64,000 nucleotides of DNA. Source: an uncultured Candidatus Saccharibacteria bacterium (lineage in GTDB: Bacteria; Patescibacteriota; Minisyncoccia; Phycocordibacterales; UBA9973). This document shows, piece by piece, positions 17,831 to 61,436 of the stretch (position 1 is the stretch's first letter; each line of letters starts with the position of its first letter). The notes under the pieces are model-generated. The model made no database searches, was not told the DNA's origin, and saw nothing but the letters and a program-made list of their open reading frames with translations. The translations under genes and the position numbers were made by a program. The stretch spans positions 43,890 through 107,889 of the forward strand of contig CAZSFP010000002.1 in the NCBI GenBank assembly GCA_964606285.1, written 5' to 3'.

Positions 17831-17842
17831 TTGTATTTACTC

Positions 17843-17865
17843 CCTCTCCTAGATTAGGAGAGGGT
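17843..17865. repeat. REP-like 23-bp palindrome CCCTCTCCTAGATTAGGAGAGGG (copy 1)
   Basis: Near-perfect palindrome. An inverted partner lies at 17933-17955, and a third copy at 59311-59334. Confidence 0.6.
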
Positions 17866-17932
17866 TGGGGTGAGGTCGATATCTGTATCAAAAAAATACT
17901 ACAATACTTCAACCTCATCCGCCTTTCAGGCA

Positions 17933-17955
17933 CCTTCTCCTAATCTAGGAGAAGG
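17933..17955. repeat. REP-like 23-bp palindrome CCTTCTCCTAATCTAGGAGAAGG (copy 2). Together with copy 1 and the flanking GGGGTGAGGT/ACCTCATCC it forms a roughly 115-bp imperfect hairpin.
   Basis: Reverse complement of copy 1, with two substitutions. Confidence 0.6.
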
Positions 17956-17961
17956 GGAAAC

Positions 17962-17990
17962 AAAAACCCCTCGATAGCGAGGGGTTTTTA
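17962..17990 (-). terminator. Intrinsic terminator of the infC-rpmI-rplT operon (AAAAACCCCTCGctatCGAGGGGTTTTT)
   Basis: Perfect 9-bp GC stem flanked by A- and T-runs, immediately downstream of rplT on the minus strand. Confidence 0.7.
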
Positions 17991-18335
17991 TTATGCGACT
18001 GCTTTGACGATTTTTTCAAAGACTGCTGGTTCGTGTTCTGCAAAGTATGCGAGAACTTTTCGATCGAGTGATACATTCTTTTTCTTGAGTGCATCGATGA
18101 ACTTTGAGTAGGAGAGACCGTGTGGGCGAACCGCAGCATTGAGTTTGACGTTCCAAAGTGTGCGGCGGTCAGCTTTCTTGTCTTTGCGGTGTGCAAAGGC
18201 ATAACTGCCGGCATGAACGATTGCTTCTTTTGCGAGAGCCTCTTTGTTTTTTCGTCCAAAACGAAATCCTTTTGTCTGAGCAAGGACGTTCTTTCGGCGC
18301 TTGTTTTTGATTGTTCCTCGTTTAACGCGTGTCAT
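17991..18335 (-). CDS. rplT: 50S ribosomal protein L20
   Basis: MTRVKRGTIKNKRRKNVLAQTKGFRFGRKN… matches the L20 N-terminus; 114 aa. Confidence 0.95.
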   Translation of the reverse strand: MTRVKRGTIKNKRRKNVLAQTKGFRFGRKNKEALAKEAIVHAGSYAFAHRKDKKADRRTLWNVKLNAAVRPHGLSYSKFIDALKKKNVSLDRKVLAYFAEHEPAVFEKIVKAVA

Positions 18336-20470: not shown

Positions 20471-20473
20471 TTG

Positions 20474-20857
20474 TGGAACTGGGCGGAATCGAACCGCCGT
20501 GCAATCATATTCTCAATACGAATCTCCGTGTGCAGATTCTTTCTTGTTTTAAATCATCTGTCTATGAAAGAAACAAAACAACAGACGATCGATCCCTGTG
20601 TTTCGGACGCTGTATCGGGAGGTACAACATTCCTATCATGAAATATGAAGCTCACTTTCTTCTATCATGAAATCAAAGAAGTGAACTGCTCGCGATTAAA
20701 CGCGGGCAAAAGCAAAGTTTGCCATACCGAAGTATGGAGACTTTACTCCTGAACGAAATGCGTTTGCATTTACGGTGTTGCAAGAAGTTTTGCGAGATTC
20801 CTGTGGACTCGACACGCACGCACTGAGGACACATGACTGTCTAGGCCTTTCAGTCCC
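20474..20857 (-). ncRNA. ssrA: tmRNA (ssrA), one-piece
   Basis: Minus-strand 5' end GGGACUG pairs with the 3' CAGUUCC. The 3' tRNA-like T-arm is GGCGGUUCGAUUCCGCC followed by CAGUUCC-A. The encoded tail is ACAA, so CCA is not fully encoded. The candidate tag ORF reads …GCA AAC UUU GCU UUU GCC CGC GUU UAA (ANFAFARV*). It lies immediately 3' of smpB. Confidence 0.75.
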
Positions 20858-58245: not shown

Positions 58246-58456
58246 CAATCAAAGTAAAACCGCACAATCTATCGATGTTGATATCGACAGCGCTTGTGCG
58301 GTTTTTTTATTGTAACAAAACCAGAATAAGGCCGTCTGTATAAGGGAAATAGGGGTTTTTTAGGTATTGACTTTTCATACACAATATGATACAATATTCC
58401 CAAAGGAGGTAACTCCATCGCGCACCGCGAAACTGTGCTTTTTAAAAAACATTAAA

Positions 58457-59242
58457 ATGAAATATATTTTAATCATAGTTCTTGCAATTGTTGTCGGTCT
58501 TACTTCATGTAAACCCGCAAAAGAAGTTTCAAAAGCTGAATCAAAAAAAACTGAAAAGAAAAAAGAAACAAAACAACAGGATACTTTAACCATGAGTGTT
58601 GGAACAATAGAAAAATATGTTCTTGACGCAGAAAAGATGAAAAGTATGCAATATTACCTGAAGGGAAATATTGAGCTGTACTCAAAAAATCCTGCTGATA
58701 CACTCAGTGTGTCACTTTCATCGAAGGTTGATGAAAGTGGAAAATTATTGGTTGGGAAGAAAGGAAATACTCCCGATATAGTGATTCCGAGTGGAACACC
58801 TTGTATCGTGGCAAGTGTTGAAGGTATAGATATATTTGTGCAGTTTTCGACAGATAAAGAAAAGCAGATAAAATTTATGCCACATCTTACTGATAGTATT
58901 TATTATCCTCTTGGAAAATTAAGTAAAAAGATTTACTACGGAGGACAGGTAATGTACATCTCAGAAGAAAGTTTGAATGCACGTTTTGTTTTTTTGAAAG
59001 ATAATTTACCACAGACCAGTAATTCACAAACAGAAAGTGGAGTAACTATTTTTCAAAAAGATGCTCTTCCGGAGGGTTCTGGAGTTCAAAAAAAATCTGG
59101 AAACAATGGAGAGTTTGGAAATTTTTCAATTCCCGGCAGTTCGGGTCAACAACAAACGCAACAAGAACAAAAACAGGAAACAAAACCTGCGAATCAAAAT
59201 CAACAACCAAAGAAAGGAGCGGATCGCTTCGATCTTCCTTGA
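58457..59242 (+). CDS. Lipoprotein (hypothetical) with Q/N/K-rich C-terminal tail
   Basis: MKYILIIVLAIVVGLTSC is a signal peptide plus an LTSC lipobox. Start corrected to 58457. Confidence 0.6.
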   Translation: MKYILIIVLAIVVGLTSCKPAKEVSKAESKKTEKKKETKQQDTLTMSVGTIEKYVLDAEKMKSMQYYLKGNIELYSKNPADTLSVSLSSKVDESGKLLVGKKGNTPDIVIPSGTPCIVASVEGIDIFVQFSTDKEKQIKFMPHLTDSIYYPLGKLSKKIYYGGQVMYISEESLNARFVFLKDNLPQTSNSQTESGVTIFQKDALPEGSGVQKKSGNNGEFGNFSIPGSSGQQQTQQEQKQETKPANQNQQPKKGADRFDLP

Positions 59243-59261
59243 TGATGATTCATCAAATAAA

Positions 59262-59292
59262 AAATCCCCGCACAATCGTGGGGATTTTTTTT
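59262..59292. terminator. Bidirectional terminator (AAAAAATCCCCGCACAatcGTGGGGATTTTTTTT)
   Basis: GC stem with A/T-runs. Confidence 0.65.
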
Positions 59293-59310
59293 ATTGTATA
59301 GGTGTTCTCT

Positions 59311-59334
59311 CCCTCTCCTAGTCTAGGAGAAGGG
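59311..59334. repeat. REP-like palindrome CCCTCTCCTAGTCTAGGAGAAGGG (copy 3)
   Basis: Same motif as 17843-17865 and 17933-17955, again between convergent gene ends. Confidence 0.6.
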
Positions 59335-59341
59335 AATGCTT

Positions 59342-60115
59342 TTACAATACAAATACGAGAAATAAGATACCCACAACAATCCGATAAATGCCGAATGGAA
59401 TAAACGTATGATTGGATATGAACCGCAAGAGCCAGCGCATGGCGATATAGGCAACGATTGCCGCAGTGACAGCTCCGATACAGAGAAGCAGCCACTCGTG
59501 TGCTGTAAATGAAAAACCTGTTTTCAGGAGGTCGAGTCCGGTGGCGGCGCCGAGTGTTGGGATAGCGAGGAGAAATGAAAAATAGACGAGGCTCTTTCGT
59601 CCGATACCAATCAATCGTCCGCCAATGATTGTCGCACCTGAACGGGAAATACCGGGGATGAGAGCTATAGATTGGAAGAGACCAAGGAGAAATGACTGTT
59701 TGTAGGAAATGTCGCCAATTGATCGATCCTCAGGAAGTGACACATTTTCTTTTTTGAACCATTCGACGAGGATCATGATGATACCGCCGATAATGAGTGC
59801 CCAGGCAACGATCGCGGGATTATCGAGAAATTGTTTGACGTATTTGTATGCGAGGAGACCGATGATCGCAGTTGGTAGGAAGGCGATAGCAATTTTTTTG
59901 TATATTTCAACATTGTTCCAAATATCTTTTATCGCGAGAGCAAGAACAGAAATGATCGCGCCGCCTTGAATCACGATTTCAAATGTTTTTAAAAATTCTG
60001 TTGATTCGAGTCCGAGTAGATTACTCGCGAGAATTAAGTGTCCAGTCGAAGAGATGGGGAGGAATTCCGTGATTCCTTCAACGATACCGAGAATGATGGC
60101 GTGGAGGATGGTCAT
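59342..60115 (-). CDS. uppP: Undecaprenyl-diphosphatase (BacA/UppP)
   Basis: 257 aa, 8-TM protein, …EGITEFLPISSTGHL…PGISRSGATI… match UppP motifs. Confidence 0.9.
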   Translation of the reverse strand: MTILHAIILGIVEGITEFLPISSTGHLILASNLLGLESTEFLKTFEIVIQGGAIISVLALAIKDIWNNVEIYKKIAIAFLPTAIIGLLAYKYVKQFLDNPAIVAWALIIGGIIMILVEWFKKENVSLPEDRSIGDISYKQSFLLGLFQSIALIPGISRSGATIIGGRLIGIGRKSLVYFSFLLAIPTLGAATGLDLLKTGFSFTAHEWLLLCIGAVTAAIVAYIAMRWLLRFISNHTFIPFGIYRIVVGILFLVFVL

Positions 60116-61360: not shown

Positions 61361-61436
61361 TCCTCGGTAGCTCAGTTGGTAGAGCGCCTCCCTGTTAAGG
61401 AGGATGTCCTAGGTTCGAGCCCTAGCCGAGGAGCCA
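61361..61436 (+). tRNA. tRNA-Asn (anticodon GTT), CCA encoded
   Basis: Acceptor TCCTCGG/CCGAGGA, D-arm GCTCAGTTGGTAGAGC, anticodon stem-loop CCTCC-CTGTTAA-GGAGG, T-arm GGTTCGAGCCC, discriminator G, then CCA. Confidence 0.9.

Follow-up and report, generated by a model that had tools for sequence, protein, structure and literature searches.

A putative gene-less inverted pair of BoxC/PIT/TM-type motifs in a Patescibacterial genome and its probable origin from a DUF559 nuclease cassette

Introduction

The BoxC/PIT/TM repeats have, to our knowledge, been known since the early 1990s, and we know of no work that has found their origin, their function or the mechanism by which they spread. BoxC/PIT elements were reportedly described in E. 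coli and other bacteria by Bergler in 1992 and by Hoyne and Maher in 2000. The pattern published for the BoxC/PIT/TMECO motif is CCCTCNCCC N3-6 GGGNGAGGG N3 GGGNGAGGG (Holder 2015, PMC4666352). In E. coli MG1655, 23 TMECO copies have been identified, always intergenic and five times arranged as inverted pairs of two different variants (PMC4666352). According to the same study, an isolated TMECO strand forms a triplex in vitro, as judged by CD and NMR; DMS footprinting revealed no triplex in vivo, duplex DNA formed none either, and purine-motif triplexes do not form in RNA (Holder et al., PMC4666352). TMECO loci vary more between E. coli strains, and palindromic TM pairs undergo partial internal deletions in which the hairpin is kept (PMC4666352). 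As cited in that article, PIT elements have no promoter or terminator activity in E. coli. Mobility functions were never found near the motifs by Holder et al. (PMC4666352).

Here, we describe a palindromic element in a 64-kb stretch of DNA from a small-genome Patescibacterium; the whole stretch that was analyzed is referred to as the window. The reading that we favor, with a probability of roughly 0.68, is that the window holds a gene-less inverted pair of BoxC/PIT/TM motifs derived from a cassette encoding a DUF559 nuclease, together with the remnant of a second such pair.

Results

The 23-bp palindrome CCYTCTCCTA-NNN-TAGGAGARGG occurs three times in the window, compared with no occurrence expected from 100 dinucleotide shuffles. 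The matches to CCYTCTCCTAGNNTAGGAGARGG lie at 17842-17864, 17933-17955 and 59311-59333 (copies 1 to 3), and no additional copy was found in the 64 kb when the 17-nt core was searched allowing two mismatches. The earlier note on this DNA had counted the same three copies, with the coordinates of copies 1 and 3 one base off. They occupy two sites, which are composed as follows.

Site 1, 16448-17830, plus strand: beta-CASP/MBL gene, convergent with rplT
Site 1, 17842-17875, plus strand: unit 1, consisting of pyrimidine stem CCCTCTCC, loop/extension TAGATTA, purine stem GGAGAGGG, loop 2 TTG and third strand GGGTGAGG
Site 1, 17876-17912: spacer of 37 nt between the inward-facing third strands; position of the DUF559 gene in relatives
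Site 1, 17913-17955, minus strand: unit 2, consisting of CCTTCTCC, TAGATTA, GGAGAAGG, loop 2 TGCCTGAAAGGC and third strand GGATGAGG
Site 1, 17962-17989: bidirectional intrinsic terminator (A-run, CCCCTCG-atag-CGAGGGG, T-run) common to the beta-CASP gene and rplT
Site 1, 17991-18335, minus strand: rplT
Site 2, 58367-59242, plus strand: unannotated ORF, convergent with uppP
Site 2, about 59259-59293: bidirectional intrinsic terminator, host sequence
Site 2, 59311-59333: copy 3, a solo palindrome in which CCCTCTCCTAG, the first 11 nt of copy 1, is joined to TCTAGGAGAAGG, the last 12 nt of copy 2
Site 2, 59342-60115, minus strand: uppP

Copies 1 and 2 stand in opposite orientation, and their inner flanks, GGGGTGAGGT (17867-17876) and ACCTCATCC (17912-17920), are mutually complementary and lengthen the pairing between the two copies. 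As a single strand, the region 17832-17992 folds into one long hairpin formed by copy 1 with copy 2, followed by the separate hairpin of the terminator. The RNA fold of this region, terminator included, has an energy of -81.8 kcal/mol (z = -11.1), and the DNA fold of 17836-17960 has an energy of -29.9 kcal/mol (z = -6.9). At both sites the palindrome begins 8-11 nt past a stop codon, ahead of the bidirectional intrinsic terminator. Much of the earlier description is thereby borne out: an interspersed REP-like palindromic repeat, located between convergent gene ends downstream of stop codons and next to intrinsic terminators, with copies 1 and 2 inverted, their complementarity extended by the flanks, and the two together forming a super-hairpin that resembles a REPIN doublet.

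The terminator of site 1 is host sequence and lies outside the repeat; relatives with 68% protein identity have a terminator of the same kind before rplT, without the triplex motif described below. In the wider family, 44 sites could be classified by crude ORF calling, and of these 31 are tandem, 12 convergent and one divergent, against background intergenic classes of 69%, 16% and 15%, respectively. All but one (43/44) follow at least one gene end. The family thus avoids promoter (divergent) regions. Its excess at convergent ends is weak (12/44, or 27%, vs 16%), so that the check on positional bias proposed in the earlier note is borne out in part. In the window, the host is likely affected only in that the beta-CASP and uppP mRNAs bear an additional stable hairpin at their 3' ends, ahead of their terminators.

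Copies 1 and 2 turned out to be parts of larger units. In each, a G-rich segment (GGGTGAGG and GGATGAGG, respectively) comes after the hairpin and obeys the rules of a purine-motif triplex at 8/8 positions. The TA/TA pairs within TAGATTA extend the hairpin of unit 1 to 10 bp with a 3-nt loop; loop 2 of unit 2, TGCCTGAAAGGC, is 12 nt long and includes a mini-hairpin, GCC-tgaaa-GGC. We searched for such units with a triplex-motif finder that uses 8-nt stems, tolerates at most one mismatch and restricts the triads to G.G-C, A.A-T and T.A-T. It returned exactly two matches in the window, units 1 and 2, each 8/8, whereas 100 simulated versions of the window, generated with a first-order Markov model, yielded none. 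Relative to unit 1, unit 2 differs by C>T, G>A and G>A, that is, one position has changed on all three strands, a triple compensatory change. The same dependence is seen across the family: among about 700 hairpins of the fetched loci, 38% show a perfect match with their own tail, compared with 10% when hairpins are swapped between units. Family-wide, T invariably reads the A in the center of the purine stem, whereas the remaining As are read by A, and the end variants CCC/GGG/GGG and CCT/AGG/GGA co-occur repeatedly (the window, L066, L220, L128, L149 and L154). This mirror symmetry marks a triplex (Hoogsteen-type) constraint, not a Watson-Crick RNA fold or the site of a dimeric protein.

Both units possess the three blocks that define BoxC/PIT/TM motifs: a pyrimidine stem is followed by its purine complement and then by another purine-rich stem that runs antiparallel to the first, and all triads are legal. 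The third strand co-varies with the hairpin in the window and in the family, and the motifs lie between genes, in either strand orientation, singly or as inverted pairs made up of two variants. Because the third, G-rich segment co-varies with the stem by triplex (mirror) rules, we assign units 1 and 2, as far as sequence can tell, to the BoxC/PIT/TM intrastrand-triplex motifs and not to REP/RAYT. The strict TMECO pattern does not match either unit: the ninth stem base is T/A and not C/G, loop 1 is 7 nt long when the TA pairs are left aside, and loop 2 of unit 2 has 12 nt. The window element is accordingly classed as a TM variant, set apart by its eight triads, by a loop closed with TA, by a second loop that is long in one unit and by its host, a Patescibacterium. 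In an Rfam scan of the window at gathering thresholds, only tmRNA and tRNA passed; an E-value scan of 17780-18010 gave nothing specific (Whalefall-1 at 16 bits against a threshold of 37, and BTnc231 at 24 against 80).

The palindrome is by no means confined to the window. In a scan of one genome per species, the 23-mer was found in at least 120 genome stretches, and the hosts among the matches listed include Patescibacteria, Melainabacteria, Bacteroidota (Tidjanibacter), Ignavibacteria, Balneolaceae, Chloroflexi, cyanobacteria and gamma-proteobacteria. In most of the matches listed, GGGTGAGGT comes 1-14 nt after the hairpin, in some cases with a tiny GCC-loop-GGC hairpin in between; GGGTGAGGT as a string in a literature search returned only let-7 primers. 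The presence of near-identical sequences of 23-35 nt, loops included, in unrelated phyla points to the transfer of a defined element rather than to convergence. A phage vector was considered and rejected, as the motif is present on only 2 of 2.9 million viral contigs.

Within its own lineage, the window element appears to be of narrow distribution. The window's beta-CASP protein has its relatives in genomes that bear the names Paceibacteria, Pacebacteria or Nomurabacteria. The element is present on contigs of the same strain that come from four sequencing runs; two of these contigs break off within it, as could be expected if a repeat or hairpin disrupted the assembly. The same strain is contained in the Logan runs SRR16481187, SRR16481186 and SRR21677132. 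The relatives with 68% protein identity retain the synteny NDK - DUF2238 - beta-CASP ... rplT, with one or two extra genes in the interval. Since strain-level relatives carry the element and the 68%-identity relatives do not, it is probably lineage-specific. No clean empty site was recovered for either insertion in the window, the 68%-identity relatives differing in the gene content of the interval, and no target-site duplication is evident at the window element.

To characterize the genomic neighborhood of the palindrome, we clustered 1,444 ORFs located within 2.5 kb of it at 120 genome loci by all-against-all BLAST. Among the matches listed, the sole family recurring directly beside the palindrome was DUF559 (PF04480, E = 1e-31 to 1e-40), a Vsr-like PD-(D/E)XK nuclease family. 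It adjoins the palindrome in four unrelated lineages (L004, L009, L066 and L080), of which the Wirthbacteria locus L009 provides a CPR-related example of the cassette. The 64-kb window itself has no DUF559 gene. An association with small GIY-YIG nuclease genes was considered and rejected, as a regex scan of the window and the 120 loci found none.

In the reverse direction, we fetched 80 metagenomic DUF559 loci using motif-adjacent proteins as queries and read them both by eye and with the finder; as the loci were chosen by similarity to motif-adjacent proteins, the association described here is valid for that subfamily only. Close to the DUF559 gene, at distances of up to 250 nt, motifs reach a density of 3.4/kb, as against 0.07/kb more than 600 nt away on the same contigs, a 50-fold local enrichment that is accompanied by an oriented motif-gene-motif geometry. 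A sense motif lies upstream of the gene at 43/79 loci, an antisense motif downstream at 48/75, and both are present at 34/74, giving a cassette of the form motif - DUF559 gene - inverted motif. The cassette ends are true inverted repeats, often with identical loops, and they frequently differ from each other by the window's own CCC/CCT three-strand variant. On viral contigs, motifs were found beside 3 of 13 close DUF559 genes. At two loci (L124 and L198), the whole cassette is inserted in frame within protein-coding genes, leaving the reading frame intact. These observations establish the link between the motif and DUF559, and we infer that the nuclease mobilizes the motif.

In the DUF559 proteins of the cassettes, residues D48, E59, D61, H65 and R90 are kept in 80 or 81 of 81 sequences, and internal stops occur in 0 of 80. 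The protein matches the solved DUF559 structure (PDB 3HRL) with E = 6e-23 and, weakly, the homing endonuclease I-Bth0305I (PDB 3R3P; E = 0.19); defense-system and NCBIfam scans returned only the generic name. In 19 of 27 cases the ATG of the gene lies 5-19 nt past the third strand, which suggests that the G-run of the third strand in gene-bearing relatives probably doubles as a ribosome-binding site. The Shine-Dalgarno-like role would thus belong to the G-rich tail and not to the palindrome core. The earlier note had proposed that the core sequesters an SD-like sequence; the window offers no support for this, because no ORF follows either unit.

The single DUF559 gene of E. coli, ycjD, adjoins fabI (envM) and has a degenerate motif at its 3' end. 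BoxC is said to have been first noticed beside envM. TMECO number 9 of Holder et al. is located between ycjD and fabI. In a spread sample of complete E. coli genomes, the number of BoxC-like places is 10-23 where ycjD is present (median 16, n = 37) and 1-19 where it is absent (median 3, n = 23), a difference that is significant (Mann-Whitney p = 5e-9) and confounded by phylogroup. B2/ST131 strains have 1-3 BoxC-like copies. O157:H7 is without ycjD, yet has about 12 copies of BoxC. We found no sign of ycjD mobility in E. coli, where the gene is single-copy at a fixed locus, and no clean empty site, as in strains that lack ycjD the eef efflux island takes the place of the whole region. The position of ycjD and the copy numbers lend partial support to DUF559-driven spread; the static ycjD and the copies kept by O157:H7 speak against it.

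The arrangement of the motifs links the window pair to these cassettes. Gaps between inward-facing motifs are bimodal: they measure either 10-47 nt, without a gene (11 clustered cases including the window), or 327-457 nt, with DUF559 inside, and few pairs fall between the two groups. The window pair, with its gap of 37 nt, belongs to the short class. A gene-bearing counterpart comes from a rumen bacterium (L066), in which the left end reads CCCTCTCCTAATTTAGGAGAGGG-ca-GGGTGAGGT, the right end reads ACCTCATCC-caa-CCTTCTCCTA...TAGGAGAAGG, and a DUF559 gene lies between them. The left end is thus of the variant CCCTCTCC../GGGTGAGGT and the right end of the variant ACCTCATCC../CCTTCTCC.., and both the variants and their arrangement agree with those of window units 1 and 2. 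A contig from a viral collection (L220) even has gene-bearing and gene-less forms side by side. As in a MITE, then, the window pair has the same two terminal inverted repeats as an element that bears a gene, but no gene between them. Since the 37-nt gap falls into the short class and the end variants are those of a gene-bearing cassette, 17842-17955 is most likely a gene-less, non-autonomous, MITE/REPIN-like derivative of a motif-DUF559-motif cassette.

Copy 3 differs from the other two. It is an exact chimera of copies 1 and 2, has a third strand on neither side and includes a C.A stem mismatch (G.U on the minus strand); it still forms a hairpin on the uppP-sense strand. Its chimeric sequence, the missing third strand and the stem mismatch suggest a collapsed pair, which would fit the partial deletions described by Holder et al. 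(PMC4666352).

Discussion

Our comparative data show that many phyla possess a DUF559 nuclease cassette whose two ends, inverted and oriented, are formed by these motifs. How might the window pair have come about? The G-rich third segment would fold back on the hairpin as a purine-motif triplex on single-stranded DNA. DUF559 may recognize the folded motif on transiently single-stranded DNA and nick there, after which the unit could spread by repair or by copying/replication, in the manner of REPIN-RAYT or homing. The window pair would have descended from a DUF559 cassette, or have been copied in trans by one, and settled in a permissive 3' intergenic site of a Patescibacterial (Paceibacteria-like) genome. 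At site 2, recombination or slippage between the near-identical palindromes of a second pair may have removed its interior, leaving copy 3.

A broader generalization can be put forward only tentatively, and we would give it less than even odds. BoxC/PIT/TM motifs and DUF559 might together form a cross-phylum selfish system analogous to REPIN-RAYT and driven by a Vsr-like PD-(D/E)XK nuclease that recognizes the hairpin/triplex fold on single-stranded DNA. The motif-DUF559-motif cassettes would be its autonomous form, the gene-less pairs its non-autonomous form copied in trans, and solo or chimeric hairpins its decay products. If true, this would name the long-missing agent behind BoxC repeats. 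The link between DUF559 and BoxC/TM repeats is possibly new: a literature search of incomplete coverage found no paper connecting either DUF559 or ycjD with these repeats, and Holder et al. met no mobility functions. For annotators, it accounts for the common spurious ORFs of the "PLSxxGEGxGVR" type. As regards the window, the practical consequences are modest: an additional stable hairpin, presumably of selfish origin, in two 3' UTRs.

Several other explanations deserve consideration. Following Holder et al., the motifs might be host-selected non-B-DNA motifs that promote local variability or organize DNA without a dedicated enzyme, in which case DUF559 would be a mere frequent neighbor or a repair nuclease drawn to such structures. 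The greater variability of TMECO loci between E. coli strains (PMC4666352) fits this explanation, and so do the static ycjD and the dozen copies kept by some lineages that are without the gene. We nevertheless regard it as unlikely, since near-identical motifs, loops included, recur in unrelated phyla, the motif-gene-motif geometry is oriented and comes with a 50-fold local enrichment, and the spacing of pairs is bimodal. The E. coli copy numbers, 16 against 3 in the median and confounded by phylogroup, also point away from it.

Alternatively, the element might act at the RNA level, as a host-selected mRNA stabilizer or auxiliary terminator in 3' UTRs, its DNA features being incidental. The position of both sites shortly past a stop codon and ahead of a terminator, the very stable RNA folds and the avoidance of divergent promoter regions are what one would expect of such a feature. 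However, the third strand follows mirror (Hoogsteen-type) and not Watson-Crick rules, and purine-motif triplexes are absent in RNA (PMC4666352). Moreover, the units occur on either strand, flank genes and even interrupt them in frame, no Rfam family reaches threshold, and work cited in PMC4666352 found that PIT elements act neither as promoters nor as terminators in E. coli. An RNA-level role as the explanation of the element is thus quite improbable.

The earlier note had assigned the palindromes to REP elements in their classic niche, with RAYT as a possible partner. Classical REP/REPIN elements maintained by a REP-associated tyrosine transposase would indeed be short extragenic palindromes downstream of genes, and one doublet in the window does form a long hairpin. 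Yet the family assignment was mistaken: the GTAG/CGTC head is absent from all three copies and their flanks, the same sequence is found in many phyla instead of being specific to a species or genus, a third strand under mirror/triplex rules is no feature of REP, and the recurrent neighbor is DUF559. Nor did the corresponding enzyme appear. No E. coli RayT homolog was seen in the window or beside the motif at about 250 loci; phmmer with the single E. coli RayT sequence gave no match in the window and one weak match (E = 0.002) across those loci, 5 kb from the motif. We therefore consider this explanation very improbable. Finally, the idea that the copies are chance palindromes or ordinary terminator hairpins can practically be dismissed, for although a few bare 23-mer matches elsewhere are plain terminators with a hairpin and then a T-run (e.g., in Streptococcus danieliae; L062 and L073), the window copies are without T-runs and adjoin separate canonical terminators, and chance is excluded by the shuffle controls and by the simulated windows free of triplex motifs.

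Comparison with known systems

The gene-less pair that we favor as the identity of the window element, and the cassettes to which we relate it, share features with several known systems. Rickettsia palindromic elements (RPEs) resemble the cassettes of two relatives (L124 and L198) in being inserted in frame in coding genes; they differ in having no gene and unrelated sequences, and the copies in the window lie between genes. Vsr-like (EDxHD) homing endonucleases, such as I-Bth0305I, and 3HRL are of the same fold family as the cassette protein, with its conserved E-x-D-x3-H, and the cassette, like them, features a small free-standing nuclease gene in a mobile-looking unit. In contrast to homing endonuclease genes, the cassette gene lies outside any intron or intein, and the similarity to 3R3P is weak (E = 0.19).

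The resemblance to MITEs lies in the terminal inverted repeats of about 35-43 bp, in the short spacer, in the folding of the pair into a long hairpin and in the existence of longer relatives that hold a gene between the same ends. Unlike in MITEs, no target-site duplication is seen at the window pair, the gene of the long form is not a known transposase, and solo ends are common. With REP/REPIN-RAYT, the window family has in common short palindromic repeats downstream of genes, inverted doublets forming a long hairpin, a single small nuclease-type gene flanked by inverted copies, and singlets that resemble decayed doublets. Here, however, the candidate enzyme is a Vsr-like PD-(D/E)XK nuclease (DUF559) and not an HUH Y1 transposase, and the repeats have no GTAG head, possess a triplex-forming third strand and are cross-phylum instead of species-specific.

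The closest likeness is to BoxC/PIT/TMECO, a family that the window appears to extend into small-genome Patescibacteria. The stems are nearly the same (CCCTCTCC / GGAGAGGG / GGGTGAGG in the window and CCCTCTCCC / GGGAGAGGG / GGGTGAGGG in TMECO), both are intergenic, on both strands, solo and in inverted pairs of two variants, and in both the pairs are prone to partial deletion that retains the hairpin. They differ in stem length (8 triads in the window, 9 in TMECO), in the TA/TA extension that closes loop 1 of the window units to 3 nt, and in loop 2, which has 12 nt with a mini-hairpin in window unit 2 and 3 nt in TMECO. The host is a Patescibacterium and not a proteobacterium or cyanobacterium. 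The published work on BoxC/PIT/TMECO came without a mobility gene, whereas the relatives of the window motifs flank DUF559.

Genomic setting of the inverted pair

The synteny around the inverted pair of triplex motifs, running from NDK, DUF2238 and the beta-CASP gene to rplT-rpmI-infC (window 15205-18335), is kept in three relatives (L205, L206 and L208), and it is the contents of the beta-CASP/rplT interval that vary. No gene lies inside the interval in the window; two of the relatives carry an LDcluster4 gene there, with or without a tRNA_edit gene, and the third a P-type ATPase. Two Logan contigs of the window's strain (L201 and L203), which are independent assemblies, both stop at the identical base in the second loop of the minus-strand unit (...ggtgcctgaaag). 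This shared end point is consistent with an element that is repeated in the genome, or with a hairpin that breaks assembly.

Searches of the window with Rfam and ARAGORN gave the following RNA genes and no other matches:

20471-20857, minus strand, tmRNA gene, tag peptide ANAFRSGVKSPYFGMANFAFARV
61361-61436, plus strand, tRNA-Asn(GTT)

Composite and double-sided forms of the motif

In Melainabacteria loci (L037, L049, L087, L101, L104 and others), the triplex motif is contained in a longer, lineage-specific composite repeat, in which the upstream side of the motif has another hairpin (GTCATCCTGAA...TTCAGGATGAC) at a distance of about 15 nt and the third strand is followed by a conserved extension, GGTCTGGTCAA. 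A different arrangement, found at 35 sites in the fetched loci (for example, in L075, L027 and L031), has a third strand on both sides of one palindromic hairpin (ACCTCACCC - hairpin - GGGTGAGGT). Since the third strands flank a single hairpin, two overlapping motifs on opposite strands use the same hairpin.

Among 2.9 million viral contigs the motif is nearly absent, apart from a 16-kb IMG/VR contig classed as viral (L216, 3300007351_000082) that has six triplex motifs on one strand within 12 kb.

Association with the DUF559 nuclease

The DUF559 gene of E. coli, ycjD, is present in 3,377 of 5,426 complete genomes; the remaining ones have the eef efflux island in its place. In a spread sample of complete genomes, the median number of BoxC-like sites was 16 with ycjD (n=37) versus 3 without it (n=23), a comparison confounded by phylogroup, because O157:H7, which lacks ycjD, still retains 12 such sites.

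Entire motif-DUF559-motif cassettes were also observed in frame within coding genes. An hrpA-like DEAH helicase gene on a metagenome contig (L124:4047-7711; Ga0233425_10014536) holds one, and its reading frame runs uninterrupted across both motifs and the nuclease domain, over a length of 1,221 codons or more. Likewise, a DNA-methyltransferase-like ORF of 840 codons (L198) holds such a cassette. These in-frame cassettes recall the Rickettsia palindromic elements, which are also inserted in coding genes.
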